Shown: positions 153 through 36,794 of the stretch, piece by piece
Layout of the letters: every line of letters begins with the position of its first letter
Numbering within the stretch: the stretch's first letter is position 1
Source: a virus
DNA length: 36,794 nucleotides
Direction: 5' to 3' (one strand)
Virus record (IMG/VR): IMGVR_UViG_3300045988_183576
Span: 1-36,794 of that record
Translations under genes and position numbers: made by a program
Notes under the pieces: generated by a model
What the model saw: the letters and a program-made list of their open reading frames with translations, nothing else
Told to the model about the DNA's origin: nothing
The model's database searches: none

Positions 153-344
153 ATGGACAATCAATATACAGTTAGGTCAACGATTAGACAGCTACGCGCC
201 TCTACGGGGCTATCGCAAAGTAAATTCGCTTTGCTTGTTCACGTACCTGTTGCCACTATCCAGACTTGGGAGCAAGGGACGAGAAAGCCACCCGAATATA
301 TTCTCTTTCTGATTGAACAGTATCTTAAATCTTTGCAAAAGTAA
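153..344 (+). CDS. Small XRE-family helix-turn-helix protein (antitoxin-like or Aca-like autoregulator)
   Basis: 63 aa. The stretch IRQLRASTGLSQSKFALLVHVPVATIQTWEQGTRKPPEYI matches the HTH_3 signature with the WEQG.R.P tail seen in HigA/MqsA-type antitoxins and small phage regulators. It starts 22 nt after the upstream ORF. Confidence 0.75.
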   Translation: MDNQYTVRSTIRQLRASTGLSQSKFALLVHVPVATIQTWEQGTRKPPEYILFLIEQYLKSLQK

Positions 345-348
345 TATT

Positions 349-388
349 AAAAGGAGCAGATTTTTTCGTCTGCTCCTTTGTTTGTTTT
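349..388. terminator. Bidirectional rho-independent terminator shared by convergent transcription units
   Basis: 9-bp stem AGGAGCAGA (352-360) / TCTGCTCCT (369-377) with an 8-nt loop. TTGTTTGTTTT follows on the plus strand and TTTTAATATT on the minus strand. Confidence 0.75.
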
Positions 389-549: not shown

Positions 550-750
550 TTATTCGTAATTGAGGTAATCAATTGCCTCTTTGGCGTTGCTTATTCTTGC
601 TTCGCCGTCTTTTACAAGCACCACGAGAGGCAAGCCTACGCAAGGATTACCGGTATAAACGGGAATATACACCTCGTAACCGTTCCACGATTTGCCTTTT
701 TTATAAGACCTTGCGCCGAGTTCTTCGACGAGTGTTTTTATTTCATCCAT
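550..750 (-). CDS. Hypothetical protein (66 aa)
   Basis: ORF track. It overlaps the end of the upstream gene by 8 nt (coupled) and has no recognisable motif. Confidence 0.6.
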   Translation of the reverse strand: MDEIKTLVEELGARSYKKGKSWNGYEVYIPVYTGNPCVGLPLVVLVKDGEARISNAKEAIDYLNYE

Positions 751-1654
751 TTTTCTTTACTCCTTTCATGATTTTATCGCAGAATTTTTCATCGATTGTG
801 CAATCGGTCAAATCCATTTTTTTGAAACCATAACCACGAGATATGAACGAATATGCCGATTTGCCACTATACTTCGTGTTCGTTTGCGGGTCATATAAAT
901 ACGTCCCTTGTCCGTCGTTCATCATCAGGACGATATGTCCCGAACTTCTGCCTTTCCAAGCCCAACGCAAAGCATACGTCTTTCCGGGTTCGCTCATTAA
1001 CGAGCCGTCGCTACTTTCTTGCTTCGGGTGATTTCCGTCTTTATCGAGATAAGCAAGCGATACGTTATGCGATAGGTCTGCTATGTTTTTGTTGTTGAGG
1101 TTCGGCAATGCTTTTACATCGTAGCCGAGTTTTCGAGCAACAAATGTTGCCACGCAAGTTTGACAGTTGGTTACATAGCCGATTTGCTCCGTTCCATAGT
1201 ACGGATTTACGCTTCCGCTGTCCGCCTGTTCAAATGTCATCGGCTTACCTTTTGCGGCACCGGCAATCTTACCGTCCTCGTGAATATAATTTTTATCCGG
1301 ATTATGCTCAGGGTTTTTGAGTTGCGCTTTCTTGATTTCGGCACGTTTTTTCCACATGGCAACGCGCCCGGGGTTCTCTTTGCGCCACTTTTTATCTTTC
1401 TCGCGCTTTTCTTCTTTCAGGTGTTTGGCGTATTCTTCGTCAACATCTTCGACATATCCGCCGTTCTTTAATGCGTTCCAAGCGTCACGAGGTGTCCACC
1501 AATCCTGTATCTTTATGCCTTTTGCTTTGCACAGTGCGAACGGCAAACGAAGTGCTTTGTTTCCGCCGCCCTCGGGGTCGTTTTTGAAATCGTCGTCATC
1601 ATTGTTTTCGCCCATTCCGTCCATAAGTCCGGTCTTTTTGAACTCTTCCGCCAT
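743..1654 (-). CDS. Two-domain protein: novel N-terminal module (paralogous to 35633..36280) plus C-terminal papain-fold Cys-His domain (CHAP/NlpC-P60/Tox-PL-like)
   Basis: 303 aa from ATG 1654, with GGAG 8 nt upstream; the track start at 1699 lacks an RBS. Catalytic-type Cys lies at a helix start (TNCQTCVATFVARKLGY), followed by His in a beta-strand (SSGHIVLMM) and then Asp (YLYDPQ). Confidence 0.6.
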   Translation of the reverse strand: MAEEFKKTGLMDGMGENNDDDDFKNDPEGGGNKALRLPFALCKAKGIKIQDWWTPRDAWNALKNGGYVEDVDEEYAKHLKEEKREKDKKWRKENPGRVAMWKKRAEIKKAQLKNPEHNPDKNYIHEDGKIAGAAKGKPMTFEQADSGSVNPYYGTEQIGYVTNCQTCVATFVARKLGYDVKALPNLNNKNIADLSHNVSLAYLDKDGNHPKQESSDGSLMSEPGKTYALRWAWKGRSSGHIVLMMNDGQGTYLYDPQTNTKYSGKSAYSFISRGYGFKKMDLTDCTIDEKFCDKIMKGVKKNG

Positions 1655-1689: not shown

Positions 1690-1718
1690 ATTTTAACACA
1701 TATTTTACTATGTGTCAA
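1690..1718 (-). promoter_or_regulatory. Sigma-70-type promoter for the 743..1654 unit, with a palindrome in the spacer
   Basis: Minus strand reads TTGACA (1718-1713), 17 nt, TGtTAAAAT extended -10 (1698-1690). The palindrome ACACATA-N6-TATGTGT (1696-1715) overlaps the spacer and -35. A second extended -10, TGTTATAAT, lies at 1790-1782. Confidence 0.55.
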
Positions 1719-1802: not shown

Positions 1803-1830
1803 AAAAAAGTGCAAACTTTTTGCACTTTTT
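1803..1830. terminator. Rho-independent terminator ending the early operon (usable in both directions)
   Basis: AAAAGTGCAAA (1805-1815) pairs with TTTGCACTTTT (1819-1829) around a 3-nt loop, with U-tracts on both strands. It lies 6 nt downstream of the stop at 1836. Confidence 0.7.
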
Positions 1831-2871: not shown

Positions 2872-3285
2872 CTATGCTACATCCGACGTCGGCAACGGAA
2901 TATACCACTTTATTTCCCACCGATACGGATTTGTCGAAATGTTTTCAGTCTGCTCAATCACGTAACAAACATTGTTTGCAATGCTGAAATAGTGCATTTG
3001 GTACGAGTTGGCACCCGTTTTTATCAAAATCCCGATTTCTTGCTGTCCTTGATAATCGTTTGAATAGGTTGTTTGCACCGAAAAATAGCCCTCTACCGAA
3101 TATAAAACCTTGTCCGAATACAGATTGACGAAAGTCATCTTTCGGTAAACGTCAAAGTTGTCTGCCTGCTTTTGGATATTATCCCGAACTGTCGTTGCTT
3201 TGTTACAACTCTCGGTCGCACAGGCGGACAATCCCAACAGCATTACACACATAATACATAAAATTATTGCTTTGAATTTTTTCAT
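2872..3285 (-). CDS. Phage-encoded lipoprotein (137 aa)
   Basis: N-terminus MKKFKAIILCIMCVMLLGLSAC has a Lys-rich n-region, a hydrophobic core and the lipobox L-S-A-C. ATGA overlap with the upstream gene. Confidence 0.75.
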   Translation of the reverse strand: MKKFKAIILCIMCVMLLGLSACATESCNKATTVRDNIQKQADNFDVYRKMTFVNLYSDKVLYSVEGYFSVQTTYSNDYQGQQEIGILIKTGANSYQMHYFSIANNVCYVIEQTENISTNPYRWEIKWYIPLPTSDVA

Positions 3286-12045: not shown

Positions 12046-13284
12046 GTGGAAGATGATACAAGGAGATTGCTCGACCTTTTGGCGGAGGCTTTACAAAAAG
12101 CCTCGTTATTGTGTGGCAAAATAATAGGAAACGACGATTTCGCAAATGAACCGATTACGCGTGAATCGTCTTTTCGTATTGTAAGTGAGGGCGGAAAGCC
12201 GTCCCCTTATCCCGACGTTACTTTCAGGTTATTATCGGATATTCAGGCGGAGGAAAATATGTCTGTTTATCTACCTTTCGGGACAGGCTCCATTCGGAAA
12301 CGTTCCCGAGAAAACAAAAATAGCCGCTACACGTGGTGGGAGGGTAGATTCCAACGCCACACGGTAACGGCTAAAACTCAAAAGGAGGTTATTGAAAAAT
12401 TAAAGAATATCCCTTTAAAAGAAAAGGAAAAAACGGAACGCGTCACAAAAAAAGGCTCGTCTTTTATCGAATGGGTTAATTATTGGTATGAAACATATAA
12501 AGAACCGTACTTACGCTCGAACTCGAAAAGGGGCTACATGGACGCATTTAATAAGATAAAGACAATCGCAACGCCTATGGAACAACTTACGCCCGATATT
12601 TTGCAACAATTCTTTATTTCTATAAACGGCGAAAACTCACGGCGTAAAGTATTCGACGTTGTTAATTCCGCTCTTCGTCAAGCGGTCATTTCGGAGAAAA
12701 TACGCAAGAACCCTTGCGAACTCTTGAAACGCCCGAAAGTTAAGTCGGAGCATAAACGTGCTTTTACTGCGGAAGAACAAACGGCGATTCTTACGGCTTT
12801 ACCCGAAAAGTATAGTCGGCTCTTTACCGTCCTTTGCTGTACGGGTATGCGCATAAGCGAATTTTTGGCTCTCACGCCCGACGACATCGGCGACGACGAA
12901 ATACGGGTTAATAAGATGATGAACCGCGACGGTATCATCGAACACGACACGAAAAACCGCACGTCACAACGTTTTATCAATTATGACGAGAGTTTACGAG
13001 AAAAACTCGACTACTGCGTTTCGGAAAATTATACCTACAACGCCGTTAAACTCGCTTTCGGCAGAACTTTTGTAAAATTAGGCTTTACCGACGTTTCCGT
13101 TCATTCTACACGGCATACTTTTGCCACAATGTGCCATTTAACGCAAATTGACGACCTTTTAACCAAAAAATGGCTCGGTCACGCTACTTTATCGATGACA
13201 AAAGACGTTTATACGCATTTTATGAAACGCGAAAAATCGCCTTTTACTGATTATTTTGTAAAACTTAAACGCTTTGAGGGCTGA
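12046..13284 (+). CDS. int: Tyrosine recombinase / phage integrase
   Basis: Catalytic residues: R in CTGMRISEFLAL, H-x-x-R in HSTRHTFAT, H and Y in LGHATLSMTKDVYTH. GTG start at 12046 follows GGAGGAG. An alternative in-frame ATG at 12259 follows GGAGGA and would give a canonical ~341-aa protein. Confidence 0.9.
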   Translation: MEDDTRRLLDLLAEALQKASLLCGKIIGNDDFANEPITRESSFRIVSEGGKPSPYPDVTFRLLSDIQAEENMSVYLPFGTGSIRKRSRENKNSRYTWWEGRFQRHTVTAKTQKEVIEKLKNIPLKEKEKTERVTKKGSSFIEWVNYWYETYKEPYLRSNSKRGYMDAFNKIKTIATPMEQLTPDILQQFFISINGENSRRKVFDVVNSALRQAVISEKIRKNPCELLKRPKVKSEHKRAFTAEEQTAILTALPEKYSRLFTVLCCTGMRISEFLALTPDDIGDDEIRVNKMMNRDGIIEHDTKNRTSQRFINYDESLREKLDYCVSENYTYNAVKLAFGRTFVKLGFTDVSVHSTRHTFATMCHLTQIDDLLTKKWLGHATLSMTKDVYTHFMKREKSPFTDYFVKLKRFEG

Positions 13285-30607: not shown

Positions 30608-31375
30608 TTATTTGTGCATTTTTAATCCGTCGCAATCGTCATACAGGCAGTTATGTTTAACCGCTCCGCCGATTTTGGACGAATACCCGAACGCACCCTC
30701 GGTTTTTGCCTTTAACTTCTGATTTTCAGCCTGTAACGCAAGTATTTTCGCGTTCAAGCCGTCAATAATAGCCTCGTAATCGGCAGGCATGTCCGATTCT
30801 TCTACGGCAGGTTCGTTGCGCATTTCGGGAATGTCGTCGGCAACCTCTTCGGTTTCTTCGGTTTCTTCGGGAGCGGTTTCCGCTATCGCTTCGGTTTCTC
30901 CGTCGCCCGTGTCGTCGCCCTCGTCCGCTTCAACGCCTTTCTGCATAACCGGTTCTTCTTCCGTTTCGGGAGCTTCCGTTCCGACCTCTTCGGTTTCCTC
31001 TTCTTCGGTTTCCTCTTCTTCGGTTTCCTCTTCTTCGGTAACTTCTTCGGTTTCTTTCTTAGGCTCCGTATTTTCGCCATTTTCGGGCGTTTCTTCTTCT
31101 GCGGTCGTTTCCTCGGTTGCTTGCGTTTCGTCGGTTGCAACTTCCTTTTCTGCGCTGTTTTCGCCGTTTCCGTCCGTTTCGGGTTCTTCCTTAACTTCGT
31201 CCTTGACTTCCGTTTTCTGTACGGGGTCTGCAACCTTGTTTTCGGGTTCTTCCTTAACTTCGGGAGCGGTTACGGTTTCCTCGCCGAGTGCGCTTTTAAG
31301 TTCGCTCTTTACCTCGGGAGGTGCTTTTTTCAGTTCGGCAATCAATTTATCCAACATTGATTTTATCAGTGCCAT
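30608..31375 (-). CDS. Putative scaffolding protein (255 aa), extremely acidic Glu/Thr-rich with C-terminal coiled coil
   Basis: It lies between the portal and capsid genes and contains EEETEEEETEEEETEEV repeats and LNAKILALQAENQKLKAK. Confidence 0.6.
   Translation of the reverse strand: MALIKSMLDKLIAELKKAPPEVKSELKSALGEETVTAPEVKEEPENKVADPVQKTEVKDEVKEEPETDGNGENSAEKEVATDETQATEETTAEEETPENGENTEPKKETEEVTEEEETEEEETEEEETEEVGTEAPETEEEPVMQKGVEADEGDDTGDGETEAIAETAPEETEETEEVADDIPEMRNEPAVEESDMPADYEAIIDGLNAKILALQAENQKLKAKTEGAFGYSSKIGGAVKHNCLYDDCDGLKMHK
30991..31035 (-). repeat. Three perfect tandem 15-nt repeats (CGGTTTCCTCTTCTT on plus) encoding EETEE units
   Basis: Copies at 30991-31005, 31006-31020 and 31021-31035, with degenerate copies flanking them. 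Confidence 0.85.
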
Positions 31376-33053
31376 TAGTCAGCCCTCCTTGTGCTGTTTT
31401 ATTTAACGTCGCATTTGTGTTTTGGGTCGTCGGTTTTGGGTTCTCCGCCGCTCCGCTCTCTTGCGGTAAACCGCCGCCCATTGGCATTTGCGCTTTGTTA
31501 CTGTGAGAAATAATAAATTCTTCGAGGTCTTTTGTTTCCCTGTACGAGTTAGTGCCGAGTATCTTTTCCGCAAGCATACGAGCGGTAACCTTTCCGCCGT
31601 TGTACAATTCTGCGTACTGCTGTATCTCTTCCGCCTGTATCTCTTGGCTTACGGGCATAATACGCATTTCGGGAGCCTCGACCCCGTAATAATGAAAATA
31701 GATATCAATCAAGTCCTGCAAGGGCTGTGAGATGATACCTATCTTGTCTTTTATGAACGTTTCGGTGTTACTTCGTCCCGCTTTGATTTCCGTAGCGGAT
31801 TTCTGCGTCGTGCCGTCGGATAGCCAACTTGCTATTGTAGTACTCGATAGCCCGAGTGCCGCCGCCGTGTCGTTCAAAATATTCTGTTTTTGCGTTTTTA
31901 TCTCGTCCGCTCGTAGTTCAGGCTGTATCGGGAGCGGCTTGCCGTCTTTCTCGCCGTTAAGCAAATTCTCGTAGTAATTGAAGATTATCGGGTCAAGCGC
32001 ACGCCGTCTTTCTTCGGGGTCGTTCGGATTACTGTTGCAGTCGTCCATCATTACCCTTGCGCGTGCCGCATATACCTCCACACGCTCGAAGAACTTTAAC
32101 TGCTCATACTGATACAGTTCGTTTTGTAGAAAGTCCGCAAGCGGCATACCGAACGGCATTTTCGGAAACGACGGAATGTTACGAGTGAATTTAATCAGCC
32201 TTACGCCTAAATCGTCGTCGAACGGCAACAGCGTGCAGCTCTGCCACATGGTAGCGTACTGCCTTGACGAATCATTCGTCATCGTGTATGCGTCGGTTTT
32301 GTCTATATCGATTTCGCCGTAATCGCGTTTAAGGCTGTTTCTTACTTCGGGCGGAACGTCTGCCCAACGCACGGGGTCTGTCGGAACAGCGTCGTATGTA
32401 ATATTCGTCGTGGTCTGATAAACCGTATAATGTACCATAGGGAAACGCTTTTTAACACTTCCGATAGTCGTGTACTTGAAGAACCGCTCCTCGCATAAGT
32501 GATACTCTGTCGTCGCCGATATAGTGTCGTGATAAGTCGCTATAAAGCACTTAACGCGCTCTATATCTCCGTAGCCGTCAACTTCGATAAAGAACTTGTC
32601 CATTGGTATTGCTTCAAACCGCAAATCGCCGTTACCGTCGCGATTGAGCTTTAACAGCCCCGTACCGCCTGCCTCGCAGAAATCGTACGCTTCGACTTTT
32701 GCATTGTCGAAATTGCTCTTTTTCTTGAACTTCGTATCGATTATGTTGTTCGTGTCGGGGTTATACGAGTTAAGCACGACGGGATTCGAGAACAAAAGGC
32801 TCTTTATTCCGTTGCCTATCTTCTGCAAGAATTTTGTCGGTATAACGCCGTATTCAAGATTGTGAAAGCCCTCTATCCAGCCCGTATACATTCCGACAAG
32901 CGGCTTGATATACGAAGCGTAAAAAGTGTAATAACGCGGAGCGGCAAGCAAGTACGTGTTTGAATACTGCACGACCTTGAAACTGTCTGCGGATAATTCG
33001 CTCCCAACTCCGAGCGGCATAAAATTTTTGTCGTCTATAATTTCCATAAGCAC
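31347..33053 (-). CDS. Putative portal protein (568 aa)
   Basis: Called from size and its position downstream of terL and upstream of the scaffold gene. Confidence 0.65.
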   Translation of the reverse strand: MLMEIIDDKNFMPLGVGSELSADSFKVVQYSNTYLLAAPRYYTFYASYIKPLVGMYTGWIEGFHNLEYGVIPTKFLQKIGNGIKSLLFSNPVVLNSYNPDTNNIIDTKFKKKSNFDNAKVEAYDFCEAGGTGLLKLNRDGNGDLRFEAIPMDKFFIEVDGYGDIERVKCFIATYHDTISATTEYHLCEERFFKYTTIGSVKKRFPMVHYTVYQTTTNITYDAVPTDPVRWADVPPEVRNSLKRDYGEIDIDKTDAYTMTNDSSRQYATMWQSCTLLPFDDDLGVRLIKFTRNIPSFPKMPFGMPLADFLQNELYQYEQLKFFERVEVYAARARVMMDDCNSNPNDPEERRRALDPIIFNYYENLLNGEKDGKPLPIQPELRADEIKTQKQNILNDTAAALGLSSTTIASWLSDGTTQKSATEIKAGRSNTETFIKDKIGIISQPLQDLIDIYFHYYGVEAPEMRIMPVSQEIQAEEIQQYAELYNGGKVTARMLAEKILGTNSYRETKDLEEFIISHSNKAQMPMGGGLPQESGAAENPKPTTQNTNATLNKTAQGGLTNGTDKINVG

Positions 33054-33054
33054 C

Positions 33055-33408
33055 TCAGATTATCAACTCTTTCAGGTACGAGAGAAAGAGCGGGTTTTTC
33101 TTTATGTCGTCTATACTCTCAACTTCCGCGTCAAACTCGGGGTGTTTCTTCCAAATACGGTCTAACCGCTCCCCGATATAGATTTCTTCCGAGTGTTTCT
33201 CCAATATCTCGCCTATCTTGATATTTACCACTTCGGTTATCTTTCTGCAACGTCTTTCGGATATAGCACGCTTATTCGTTCGCACAAGCTCCAAATGCGG
33301 ATAAAACTCTATGCTTATTCCCGGGTATGCTTTTTCTACCCATTCGCGTATCTCTTTCTCCGCACGCGTGTATGCTATATCTCCGTTCAAAAACTCTCTT
33401 AATCTCAT
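33055..33408 (-). CDS. Hypothetical protein (117 aa) wedged between terL and portal
   Basis: Start trimmed to ATG 33408 (TAATG overlap with the terL stop). The longer track ORF to 33759 overlaps terL out of frame. Confidence 0.5.
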   Translation of the reverse strand: MRLREFLNGDIAYTRAEKEIREWVEKAYPGISIEFYPHLELVRTNKRAISERRCRKITEVVNIKIGEILEKHSEEIYIGERLDRIWKKHPEFDAEVESIDDIKKNPLFLSYLKELII

Positions 33409-34844
33409 TACAGTTCTCCATATTTCAGTTTTTCGAGGAACGCTTCCGCTCCGTTGTCCGCGTCGTAAATAGCGCGTCTTTCCGGGAACGACAAACGATA
33501 CGGATTCGCAAGCACGGTCATAACCGCGTACTGCAATGCGTCCGTACAGTCGTTCGGAATGGTCGGGTCTATCTTCTTGTTGTCCAAGTACCGCAACGCT
33601 TTTATCTGTTTGACAAGCATAGCGTTTGAATACTTCGGCGAATACCTGTCTACGTTTACGACTTTCAATATCCCGTTCGCAAACGCCGTGTTTACTTCGT
33701 CCAGTTGTTCCTCTTTCTCGCCTTTGGTTGTGTAAGGCTTTAATAACACGTTTCTCCAACGCATAAAATTGCGGTCTGTCCGTTTCATAACCGCCATTTG
33801 TCTGTACATACCGCTTGCGCAGTCAAATACCATTATTACCGGTATCGCACGCTCGGGATTGAAATGCGCCTGTATGTAGTCGAGATACTCCGCTACGATA
33901 GCGCACCGCTCCGTAAGTGCAGGCTTTACGGGTAATTCCTTGCAAGAGAGATACAATCCCTCGTTGACTTTCATATTCCCGTTTCTCTGCACCATAACGG
34001 CTTCGCCCGCTATTGCGTCCTTGCTTTCTGCGTCGTCTATGCCGATAACGATAGAGTGGAGCATATCGCCCGTTTTTTGCGGAGCGGCAAGCAACTCTTC
34101 TCTCAGTATATAATGCTCTCTTTCGATAAACGAATGAAATGTTTGTTCCCAGCCCGCTACGTCGAGGTCGCCTAAGTATATTTGAGCGTACGACACCGGG
34201 TCGGTTTTTCTCATCATCTCGATTTCGTGAATTAGTGCGTCAGGAAGCCACGCTATAATATCGAGATATGTCGGCTTTATGACCGTCCACTCGTCATCTT
34301 CCGACTTGACTTTGTAGTAGTCATCAAACCACATCGCCGCACGGTCGGGGTTTCCTGCAAGGATAACCTTGCTATGCCCTGCTTTCATTTGTCGTAAGAA
34401 CGTGGATAAACAATTATCCAAAATGCCCTTGTTATGCAACTTCTGCACTTCGTCCATTACGAACAACGATACCGGACGTATGAGCTTCTTCGACTTCGTT
34501 GCGTTCACGTTGTCTAACTTATTCGTCTGAACGGCATACGAGCGTATCTGATTACGCGCGCCTTTCATATAGCACGACTTAGCACTGAATACCCAATCGT
34601 CCGCAAGGTTCTCGCTTTCGAGGAAAGACTGAAACTCGCTCAATACGCCGTCGCCCGCGTTCGTAAGACTGTCTACACCTATCGCCACGTCATAATCGGG
34701 GAAATTGATATAATACAACCACAATATACGACCTAACGCCGACGATTTGCCGCACGCTCTTGGTGCATACCATAGGTTTTTACAACACTTCGGCGTGGAC
34801 ATATCGAACGCAGGTTCATATACGTCCGCAATCTCAACTTTCAT
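33408..34844 (-). CDS. terL: Terminase large subunit
   Basis: Walker A YAPRACGKSSALGRI, Walker B LFVMDEV, and a C-terminal nuclease-type acidic motif (VIGIDDA). 478 aa. Confidence 0.9.
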   Translation of the reverse strand: MKVEIADVYEPAFDMSTPKCCKNLWYAPRACGKSSALGRILWLYYINFPDYDVAIGVDSLTNAGDGVLSEFQSFLESENLADDWVFSAKSCYMKGARNQIRSYAVQTNKLDNVNATKSKKLIRPVSLFVMDEVQKLHNKGILDNCLSTFLRQMKAGHSKVILAGNPDRAAMWFDDYYKVKSEDDEWTVIKPTYLDIIAWLPDALIHEIEMMRKTDPVSYAQIYLGDLDVAGWEQTFHSFIEREHYILREELLAAPQKTGDMLHSIVIGIDDAESKDAIAGEAVMVQRNGNMKVNEGLYLSCKELPVKPALTERCAIVAEYLDYIQAHFNPERAIPVIMVFDCASGMYRQMAVMKRTDRNFMRWRNVLLKPYTTKGEKEEQLDEVNTAFANGILKVVNVDRYSPKYSNAMLVKQIKALRYLDNKKIDPTIPNDCTDALQYAVMTVLANPYRLSFPERRAIYDADNGAEAFLEKLKYGEL

Positions 34845-35632: not shown

Positions 35633-36280
35633 TTACTCCTTATAGACGTATTTATGAGTTAATTGCTCATACTCCGTTAAGTCTTTTATTGCATATCTTG
35701 CATAACCTTTGTCATCAAGATACAAATAGCCGTTTGCGTTGATTTTGAAAGCCCCGCCCTTTGTTTCTTGTATGTCGTACCAATGCCGGTCGTTTGCGGT
35801 TTTATTGTCTATCGATACAAAAAAGCGTTTGCCGTTGACATCTGCTGTAAAGTAATAGCCAATGCCGTATTTAGACGGATTGACCCACACTTCTTTTAAG
35901 CTGTACGGTTTTACGGCTTTCCATTTATCTTTGTGTATTCTTGCGTGCGTTTCATTGTTTTGAACTACCGAATACATGGTTTCTTTTTTCGGTGCTTCGT
36001 TTTGTGCCGCTTCCTTTTGAGGTTGCTTGTCCGGTTGCGTATCGGTTGTCTTGTCTTTCTTCAAATTGTCGTAAAACTCTTTGTATTCCTTTTCGACTTC
36101 ACCGATATGCCCGGCGTTCTTCAAAGCCTCCCACGCGTCACGAGGTGTCCAGCCTTTTTGTATCGCTATTCCTTTTTGTTCGCATAAAGCAAACGGCAAA
36201 CGGTACTTATTCGCGGTTTCGTGCGTTTCTTCGCTTTCGCCCGCTCCGTCCATTAAACCGATTTTCTTAAATTCATCCAT
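35633..36280 (-). CDS. Two-domain protein (215 aa): N-terminal module paralogous to 743..1654 plus an unrelated beta-rich C-terminal domain; first gene of the late operon
   Basis: MDEFKKIGLMDGAGE...NKYRLPFALCEQKGIAIQKGWTPRDAWEALKNAGHIGEVEKEY aligns with MAEEFKKTGLMDGMGE...NKALRLPFALCKAKGIKIQDWWTPRDAWNALKNGGYVEDVDEEY. GGAGAAG RBS. Confidence 0.7.
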   Translation of the reverse strand: MDEFKKIGLMDGAGESEETHETANKYRLPFALCEQKGIAIQKGWTPRDAWEALKNAGHIGEVEKEYKEFYDNLKKDKTTDTQPDKQPQKEAAQNEAPKKETMYSVVQNNETHARIHKDKWKAVKPYSLKEVWVNPSKYGIGYYFTADVNGKRFFVSIDNKTANDRHWYDIQETKGGAFKINANGYLYLDDKGYARYAIKDLTEYEQLTHKYVYKE

Positions 36281-36350: not shown

Positions 36351-36379
36351 TTGACAAATGTCATTCAATGTTGTATAAT
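36351..36379 (+). promoter_or_regulatory. Perfect consensus sigma-70 promoter of the plus-strand moron
   Basis: TTGACA (36351-36356), 17 nt, TATAAT (36374-36379). Confidence 0.65.
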
Positions 36380-36399
36380 ATAGTTGCAAAACAACAAAT

Positions 36400-36415
36400 G
36401 ACCGCAACGGCGGTC
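36400..36415 (+). promoter_or_regulatory. Inverted repeat GACCGC-AACG-GCGGTC in the moron 5' leader (operator or mRNA hairpin)
   Basis: It lies between the -10 and the GAGGAG SD at 36416-36421. Confidence 0.4.
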
Positions 36416-36427
36416 GAGGAGTAAAAA

Positions 36428-36794
36428 ATGAAAAGTTCTTATAATTTGAATCACGAAATCATCTCTGTCAATGATTTCCCGTACGGAAAAACGCAAGCCG
36501 TAATCGTCAAAGTTGGAAAAAGGCAATACTACATTGATGTAGACAAATGTTCTCAGTCCATAACATTATCTGTGTATGATGTAGTTTCTAAGGCGCGCAA
36601 AACCTTTTCAAAGTACGATGCAAATCTGCGTTTTATAACGCTGAGTACAAAAAATCTGCATTATATCGATAGACAATTTATGAGCGATTTGGACGAGATT
36701 ATTTTGGCTGATAAATTGGTAAAAAAATACAACATGTTTTTTTCTCGTTGCGATTATCTGTGCGACACCGACTCCACATTGATTATGTCTGAGC
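36428..36794 (+). CDS. 5' part of the junction-spanning 125-aa hypothetical protein (no stop in window; continues at 2..130)
   Basis: ATG 36428 follows GAGGAG. Hand translation gives MKSSYNLNHEIISVNDFPYGKTQAVIVKVGKRQYYIDVDKCSQSITLSVYDVVSKARKTFSKYDANLRFITLSTKNLHYIDRQFMSDLDEI..., open to the last base. It is absent from the ORF track because it lacks a stop in the window. Confidence 0.65.
   Translation, partial: MKSSYNLNHEIISVNDFPYGKTQAVIVKVGKRQYYIDVDKCSQSITLSVYDVVSKARKTFSKYDANLRFITLSTKNLHYIDRQFMSDLDEIILADKLVKKYNMFFSRCDYLCDTDSTLIMSE
36676..36794. repeat. Right copy of the 119-bp terminal overlap (identical to 1-119)
   Basis: Direct comparison of both ends. Confidence 0.95.

Follow-up and report, generated by a model that had tools for sequence, protein, structure and literature searches.

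The window analysed here is the whole of a 36,794-nucleotide stretch of viral DNA (IMG/VR virus record IMGVR_UViG_3300045988_183576, positions 1 to 36,794). Two of its genes, here named A and B, encode proteins that begin with the same N-terminal module, referred to below as the header, and continue into different C-terminal parts, referred to as the cargo. The header is spread over hundreds of metagenomic protein clusters with polymorphic partner domains, lies for the most part near terminase and portal genes, and in its commonest form is followed by a conserved small open reading frame (ORF). The coordinates of these and other features are collected in Table 1.

The first-pass annotation of this DNA had described a module of ~70 residues common to the two proteins, local DNA identity, a similar ribosome-binding site (RBS) context, unrelated C-termini (a papain-fold Cys-His domain on one, a beta-rich domain on the other) and a distance of ~1.1 kb on a circular map, with a moron between the genes. 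These points were borne out, the module itself being refined to a composite of a leader, an acidic spacer and a core of ~50 amino acids (aa). BLASTP of A against B gave 40/73 identities (55%, E=2e-21) confined to the N-termini, and nothing aligned outside them. The 16-mer CGTCACGAGGTGTCCA occurs in both genes within a 17-nt identical run (1482–1498 and 36135–36151), and TGGAGAAG precedes the ATG start codon of both. The similarity is not due to chance since the core motif is near-invariant in hundreds of independent protein clusters. No DNA-level relatives of the A region were found among GenBank phages.

An exact 119-bp direct terminal repeat (1–119 = 36676–36794) defines a circular unit of 36,675 bp, on which ~1.14 kb separates the start of A from the stop of B. 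Because the assembly closes circularly, ORFs that cross the junction were missed by the ORF list. A tyrosine recombinase/integrase encoded at 12046–13284 (+), with phmmer matches to a XerC-like recombinase and a phage integrase in PDB (E=1.6e-5 and 3.2e-5), indicates that the phage is temperate.

Table 1. Positions of the features described in the window
Feature	Position	Strand	Remarks
Gene A, 215 aa	35633..36280	-	ORF; header and orphan beta-rich cargo domain
A leader, aa 1-16	36233..36280	-	MDEFKKIGLMDGAGES; alignment with B
A header core, aa 24-75	36056..36211	-	KYRLPFALC..GI..WTPRDAWEALK..EYKEFY; predicted helices 28-35, 46-54, 65-75
A cargo domain, aa 112-215	35636..35947	-	Beta-rich; conserved IDNKTANDRHW motif
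Gene B, 303 aa	743..1654	-	ORF; header, helical K/E/R-rich linker and papain-fold Gln_amidase domain
B header core, aa 33-84	1403..1558	-	KALRLPFALC..GI..WTPRDAWNALK..EEYAKH; predicted helices 33-44, 55-63
B Gln_amidase match, aa 162-259	878..1171	-	PF15644, Pfam 'Papain fold toxin 1', E=1.6e-7
66-aa ORF	550..750	-	Overlaps B stop; candidate cognate immunity/inhibitor protein
Sigma70-like promoter upstream of B	1690..1718	-	TTGACA-17-TAAAAT with TG; 11/12 consensus matches
Palindromic hairpin with flanking A and T runs	1804..1830	.	Bidirectional terminator-like; upstream of B promoter
12-bp-stem hairpin with flanking A and T runs	350..379	.	Bidirectional terminator-like; between + strand HTH gene and B/66-aa unit
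crAss001_48-like protein, 111 aa	35297..35632	-	PF21825, E=5.5e-13; directly after A
Putative small terminase subunit (TerS), 152 aa	34834..35292	-	By position alone, just before TerL; phrog_2412; conserved in relatives
Large terminase subunit (TerL)	33408..34844	-	PF04466, E=2.2e-9
Portal protein	31347..33053	-	phrog_533, E=2.2e-14; PF12236 weak
Transcriptional activator-like protein, 134 aa	2020..2424	-	phrog_36, phrog_248 'transcriptional regulator/activator'; upstream of B
Moron promoter	36351..36379	+	Perfect sigma70 consensus, 12/12, TTGACA-17-TATAAT
Moron 125-aa ORF	36428..36794, on to 130	+	Crosses the circular junction
Moron second gene, 63 aa, helix-turn-helix (HTH)	153..344	+	HTH_3 (Xre-type), PF01381, E=9.5e-9

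Build and spread of the header

Inspection of N-termini across the family revealed a bipartite header, in which a short lineage-specific leader is joined through an acidic or Asn/Gly-rich spacer to the widely conserved core. In the window lineage the leader reads M.EFKK.GLMDG.GE; in most other lineages it consists of a basic helix, present once or twice, with the pattern MD.AV.KYR.RR..RLD / F/Y-R-x-R-R-x-x-R-L. The core, often preceded by GGHGNT, holds the almost invariant motif [RK][LI]P[FY][GA]LC..GI..WTP.DAW.AL (in extended form RLPF[AG]LC..GI..WTP.DAW.AL.G.G), and its columns P, L, C, P, A, W and L are invariant in 44 diverse members. A Lys/Glu-rich linker, flexible or helical, separates the header from the exchangeable C-terminal domain. 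AF2 modelled the core as two to three short helices (pLDDT ~70–76 in A, ~56–72 in B), followed in B by a long helical-hairpin linker.

In A, in B and in over 130 relatives the header lies outside every Pfam, PHROGs and NCBIfam model, and 44 isolated cores yielded no Pfam family at E<=10, in keeping with the first-pass annotation, which had recognised no named family; identity with a known domain was accordingly dropped. A PDB profile search with the core gave weak best matches to Cpl-7 repeats (E=0.011) and uS13 (E=0.12). A helix-loop-helix is predicted for the core, and no Pfam or PDB sequence match connects it to the HeH/SAP/Rho_N or HhH families; homology to HeH/SAP/HhH or CW_7 is thus unsupported and was kept as a lead. 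The header was also rejected as a cryptic piece of MuF: the hhalign probability against an alignment of six Phage_min_cap2-type proteins was 0.15%, and Pfam found no MuF domain (PF04233, PF06152) in A and B or among over 130 header proteins. A reading of 'LPFALC' as a lipobox or signal peptide failed on direct inspection, with Leu at position -1, acidic sequence upstream and no hydrophobic stretch.

An exhaustive profile search of metagenomic proteins, clustered at 50% identity, recovered the header in 434 clusters at E<=1e-3 and in 133 at E<=1e-10. The proteins are 50–1886 aa long, the profile match is nearly always N-terminal, and all named members are called 'hypothetical protein'. A few are very large (1095–1886 aa). 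One of them, P0044 (1886 aa), has two header cores placed internally (with the motif starting from residue 872 and the strongest profile match over 1364–1459; two stretches matched), and in P0069 (662 aa) a degenerate core copy precedes a canonical one, which means that the core can be internal or duplicated in giant polyvalent-like proteins. A word-indexed search with the headers of A and B returned short or truncated proteins only. By tblastn the header was absent from 50,697 GenBank phages and 72,556 plasmids. Among species-representative genomes three loci matched one degenerate pattern, a thin sampling of the host range. The phage of the window is a temperate phage of gut Clostridia, which is the niche of MuF toxins (PMC5576092); phages with the header include some with unrelated terminases. 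The family is large and appears to be undescribed in the domain and phage-protein libraries and papers searched.

Cargo domains, gene order and cassettes

BLAST grouped 184 distinct tails of header proteins into at least 30 unrelated components. Among 120 header proteins scanned there were 18 with a Gln_amidase domain, four with ADPrib_exo_Tox and two with an ADP-ribosyl cyclase, while ~90 had no known domain; the long members added one more ADP-ribosyltransferase (ART) and two weak, sub-threshold matches to DUF3626. Pfam detected no LPD, ArdC-N, MuF, MPTase or methylase-helicase domains among the scanned proteins. In a full-length search with A the commonest architecture was header plus Gln_amidase (286–325 aa), as in B; the beta-rich cargo of A is rarer.

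The C-terminus of B passes the gathering score of PF15644 (32.8 bits against a cutoff of 24.1), has a conserved Cys-His pair and adopts a papain-like fold in its model (pLDDT 72.6), its enzymatic activity being predicted. The candidate catalytic residues lie in NCQTC (C164, C167), SGH (H240) and YDPQ (D255) and are invariant in 10 homologues. Foldseek matches in PDB were the 9l5u toxin/immunity pair, the PCAT1 C39 peptidase, AvrPphB and OspI. In BFVD the model matched a 'Minor capsid protein' (E=1.6e-13), a 'Capsid maturation protease and MuF-like fusion protein', a 'VIP2-like toxin' and 'Papain fold toxin 1'. By tblastn against GenBank phages, matches were confined to the cargo part (aa 102/129–258/294) and fell in genes for a 'minor head protein' or 'Mu protein F like protein' in Acutalibacter and Bacteroides phages. 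In Acutalibacter phage Fontainebleau (ON453893) the gene order is TerL, portal, a 632-aa minor head protein and a 78-aa ORF. The 'head morphogenesis' families phrog_324 and phrog_4728 are matched at their C-terminal ends by further header proteins. It follows that the same cargo domains occur on MuF and on the header alike.

Homologues of the 66-aa ORF lie directly 3' of header-Gln_amidase genes in at least eight loci (L008–L012, L031, L032, L035), a conserved adjacency that fits an immunity or inhibitor role. No signal peptide was seen in it and library searches gave no family match. The 78-aa ORF that follows the MuF-Gln_amidase gene of the Acutalibacter phage was considered as a homologue and is not homologous. 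Other header genes are likewise trailed by small ORFs, of 69–126 aa.

In L004 (1233–1762), L005 and L006 an 85-aa remnant has lost the toxin domain in frame, so that the header is fused to the B-type C-terminal tail. The remnants lie in a bacterial chromosomal context (phosphotransferase system, glycerol-3-P dehydrogenase and ABC transporter genes), with a DUF7675 gene before and a 91-aa homologue of the 66-aa ORF after, and resemble the end of a decayed prophage or an orphan immunity island. In L001 (6251–6258), L002 and L003 and in P0192, P0194, P0198 and P0199, header and cargo are split by recurrent frameshifts in the Lys-rich, poly-A linker. In the three assemblies L001–L003 an A8 run leaves a 92-aa header ORF and, in the +1 frame, a 201-aa Gln_amidase ORF; with one A removed the product is B-like. 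In another cluster 5/15 members end '...AKKNLLII*' where full-length members have '...AKKKKERQ'. Such frameshifts could be phase variation, transcriptional slippage or decay.

The ATG of B at 1654 is served by the TGGAGAAG RBS; an alternative, longer GTG start at 1699 would overlap the promoter. With its own promoter and the hairpins on either side (Table 1), B looks from these signals like an autonomous unit and not simply a late gene. The sequence AAAATATGTGTTA[T/A]AAT occurs twice upstream of B, 92 nt apart (1782–1798 and 1690–1706, -); the downstream copy provides the extended -10 of the B promoter and the upstream copy overlaps what may be an ORF of 21 codons, which has a GGAG of its own.

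The cargo of A had no match in Pfam, PHROGs or NCBIfam. Its AF2 model contains seven strands at pLDDT ~50, within a poor model of the whole protein (pLDDT 44) for which Foldseek found no fold match; the earlier description as beta-rich agrees with this low-confidence model. The sole fold lead is a non-significant phmmer match (E=0.073) to a Sac7d-derived affitin (PDB 4cj0), a small SH3-like DNA-binding beta-barrel. The relatives of A are a 99%-identical cluster (P0031) and a 47%-identical full-length homologue of the same architecture (P0051). The cargo also occurs without a header in stand-alone homologues of 107 aa (P0213–P0215, ~50% identity). In another phage (L061:7001–7773) a stand-alone homologue belongs to an opposite-strand three-gene unit with 77-aa and 51-aa ORFs, which has the replication genes on one side and the ParB_N/terminase/portal/MuF2 genes on the other.

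Header genes have TerL or portal no more than 4 kb away in 28 of the 34 distinct loci that are 7 kb or longer. Two layouts prevail: in one the order is header gene, small ORF, TerS and TerL (L012, L023, L031, L032, L035), and in the other header genes stand between TerL and portal, four of them in a row in L017 (791, 552, 478 and 1241 aa). Two or more header genes, in arrays of 2–4, are present in 11/34 loci. Several header phages encode a separate, toxin-less MuF as well. The largest cargo array met, in L048 (13.7 kb), has seven header/leader ORFs, three with the header core, two with a W.T..G.HV module and two with the basic leader only, the leaders having been assigned by a loose regular expression.

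Sister phages that are 93–97% identical in the flanks of the B site differ in what this site holds. The window carries B and the 66-aa ORF, together with A. In L007, L029 and L030, which also have A, B is replaced by a 254–265-aa protein with the same leader, a second module (..RWITVKGNHVPIKKGQS..EAIKQAF) and another C-terminus, followed by an 80–81-aa ORF. L010 has B and the 66-aa ORF, then a 309-aa cassette of the L007 type with an 81-aa ORF, and L011 has B and the 66-aa ORF, then a truncated 123-aa copy of the L007-type cassette; A is absent from both.

The second N-terminal module, W[IF]T[VT].G.HV.[IV]..G[QE][ST]..EA....F, is likewise undescribed and had no Pfam match. It uses the same leaders and the same cargo slots, and once lies directly after the portal gene; the window leader also heads second-module cassettes in L007, L010, L011 and L029, and leaders and second modules combine freely. 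It was found on 16 distinct ORFs in the fetched loci (among them L007:6177–6941, L010:1142–2071, L029:6066–6863, L019:10403–13357, L020:9326–10219, L021:5633–6565 and L025:13190–13873).

Other genes of the window

Gene A, which has no sigma70-like promoter of its own, is the first gene of the block crAss001_48-like/TerS-like/TerL/portal. The crAss001_48-like ORF was rejected as an immunity protein of A: it is kept before TerS in all the sister phages compared, L010 and L011, which have no A, among them, and therefore belongs to a conserved packaging block. The 134-aa activator-like protein, a candidate late-gene activator by its sequence matches, has its gene in the same position in L007, L011, L029 and L030.

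The moron (36351–36794 and 1–379, +) lies between A and B on the opposite strand, and its order of a large ORF followed by an HTH gene recalls toxin-antitoxin pairs of the HigBA type. No PDB relative of the 125-aa ORF was found. In sister phages the moron site holds other genes. A 137-aa protein with a lipoprotein-like N-terminus (2872–3285, -) matches PF25682, 'Mycobacterium phage VG64' (E=3.8e-28), in the early region of what is a Clostridia-type phage.

Interpretation and relation to known systems

On balance we favour the reading, drawn by analogy, that the header proteins are phage polymorphic cargo (effector or toxin) proteins and that the header is a loading or delivery module independent of MuF. 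It is suggested because a constant N-terminus, a variable toxin-type C-terminus, an adjacent small ORF and recombination by cassettes match the polymorphic and MuF toxins, and from this match we infer encapsidation, delivery, toxicity and immunity for header proteins. The first-pass annotation had seen in the module a common adaptor or targeting element for different cargo domains and had compared it with virion-packaged effectors and with the modules of polyvalent proteins; the 30 or more tail families, the position in the packaging module and the MuF-borne cargo all speak for that comparison, in which packaging stays presumptive. There are precedents for deducing packaging from gene neighbourhood (PMC5512222, PMC9503650).

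Under this reading the header would have a MuF-like function and would be produced alongside the proteins of the head and of packaging. It would direct the cargo into or onto the procapsid, the portal or the DNA complex, the leader providing lineage-specific docking and the core binding a universal partner; the cargo would then travel with the virion and act in the next cell. The cargo of B would be a papain-fold Cys-His enzyme (protease or deamidase), restrained in the producing cell by the co-transcribed 66-aa protein. A may be the product of recombination between this header and a small beta-rich domain, one that also circulates by itself as a moron gene.

Several observations weigh against loading and delivery. 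The header is carried by no cultured phage in the tblastn search, its presence in virions being deduced from genes, and its core has no relative of established function detectable by PDB profile, Pfam or MuF hhalign. Unlike MuF genes, header genes do not directly follow the portal. The cargo of A can work without delivery, since it occurs header-less on the opposite strand elsewhere, and A has no lineage-specific downstream partner, the next gene being kept in relatives without A. With its own sigma70-like promoter and bracketing hairpins, B may be expressed from the prophage instead of, or besides, late in infection.

A bolder version of the loading model, possible though doubtful in our estimate, makes the header a portable two-part encapsidation tag. 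The leader would recognise the phage's own procapsid or portal and the core the packaged DNA or a universal head component, which would allow siphophages of gut and rumen Clostridia to load arrays of up to four effectors without MuF; slippery poly-A linkers might switch cargoes.

An unlikely alternative is that the header is an intracellular localisation or nucleic-acid-binding domain (e.g. HeH/SAP- or HhH-like) that tethers enzymes to DNA of the phage or the host or to the terminase complex, the proteins acting late and unpackaged in the producing cell in host takeover, competitor exclusion or packaging control. It is consistent with the predicted core, whose two to three short helices surround a conserved G-I turn, with weak sequence resemblances to the N-terminal motif of uS13 (GTKRIPFALTKIRGIGI) and to other helical repeats, and with the adjacency of header genes to TerS and TerL; a universal core combined with lineage-specific leaders fits a universal ligand such as DNA. 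The best PDB profile match, to Cpl-7 repeats, is however to no DNA binder, the Pfam search at E<=10 produced no SAP, Rho_N or HeH family, and tethering leaves the toxin-type partners, the immunity-like neighbours and the MuF-borne cargo unexplained. In part it may also be a sub-mechanism of loading, DNA binding being compatible with co-packaging.

It is quite improbable, in our view, that these are interbacterial or addiction toxins whose delivery does not involve the capsid. In that case B would form, with the 66-aa ORF, a prophage-expressed toxin-immunity, toxin-antitoxin or abortive-infection moron, and the header would serve in release at lysis, in uptake by neighbours or in regulated activation. 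The autonomous-looking promoter and flanking hairpins of B would suit such a moron, as would the toxin-deleted header and immunity remnant that persists beside DUF7675 in bacterial chromosomes; papain-fold relatives are toxins of type VI secretion systems (T6SS) and of contact-dependent inhibition (CDI) with immunity proteins (PMC12136450), and the study of the MuF toxins does not itself decide between the two routes of delivery (PMC5576092). The header, on the other hand, has an acidic N-terminus and no signal peptide, transmembrane segment or domain of translocation size; in most other lineages the header-Gln_amidase gene shows no sign of autonomy and belongs to the late operon, where it immediately precedes TerS or follows TerL, and arrays lie between TerL and portal.

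Trivial paralogy, in which A is a partial duplication of the 5' end of B and the shared N-terminus is functionless, might be suspected from the closeness of the two genes and their common RBS and 17-nt identical run, but the distribution data contradict it and make it highly implausible, with core residues invariant over 434 clusters, at least 30 C-terminal families, unrelated terminases and a 47%-identical homologue of A with the same architecture.

Should the header be a loading or delivery signal, it would give temperate gut phages a second, MuF-independent route for carrying toxins and host-modifying enzymes, and its hundreds of variants, with dozens of uncharacterised cargo domains, could be mined for toxins, anti-defence and immunity proteins. 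If a tag of ~70 aa suffices for encapsidation, it would also serve in practice to load proteins into phage particles. Even if unpackaged, the header defines a large family that is absent from the curated domain and phage-protein libraries and the cultured phages searched, and it marks a recombination hot spot upstream of terminase genes.

Further points of comparison are the capsid targeting sequences of the internal proteins of T4, which are ~10 aa long and are cleaved, and the Dar proteins of phage P1. A short N-terminal signal that is enough to load diverse proteins into a capsid offers, by analogy, a functional model for the leader, which has no sequence relationship to these proteins.

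The closest parallel is with the MuF polymorphic toxins, whose genes belong to the packaging module in temperate phages of gut Firmicutes and for which delivery by the virion has been proposed (Jamet et al. 2017, PMC5576092). In both systems a conserved N-terminal phage module precedes an exchangeable C-terminal toxin and a small downstream ORF, and the B-type Gln_amidase itself occurs as a MuF C-terminal domain. The variable C-terminal toxin with an immunity-like gene downstream is represented here, as judged from sequence, by PF15644, the 30 or more tails and the 66-aa ORF. The header differs in being unrelated to MuF and smaller (~50–70 aa against >100–250 aa), in the place of its genes (before TerS or between TerL and portal, and not immediately after the portal) and in their frequent arrangement in arrays of 2–4.

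The polyvalent proteins of phages and conjugative elements (Iyer et al. 2017, PMC5512222) likewise include ART, peptidase and other effectors whose genes neighbour those for portal and terminase and for which injection along with the DNA is predicted. They contain 2–15 domains, whereas A and B have a single cargo domain each, and the header was found on none of the 72,556 plasmids.

The header proteins follow the grammar of the polymorphic toxin systems (Zhang et al. 2012, PMC3482391), in which a constant N-terminal module for trafficking precedes a variable C-terminal toxin and an immunity gene lies alongside; in the header proteins the trafficking, toxin and immunity roles would be the corresponding, putative ones. 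Exchange of C-termini by cassettes is seen in the same-site replacement in sister phages and in the stand-alone 107-aa cargo of A. The predicted structure of B, matched to 'Papain fold toxin 1', resembles 9l5u of the papain-fold toxin pair Cpe1/Cpi1 (PMC12136450). In the header proteins the carrier is a phage packaging module and not a type V, VI or VII secretion system (T5SS/T6SS/T7SS), and the header is not among the catalogued trafficking domains. What appears to be new, then, is the header, its bipartite build, the position of its genes and the multi-gene arrays, within a kind of system, phage polymorphic toxins and virion cargo, that is already known.

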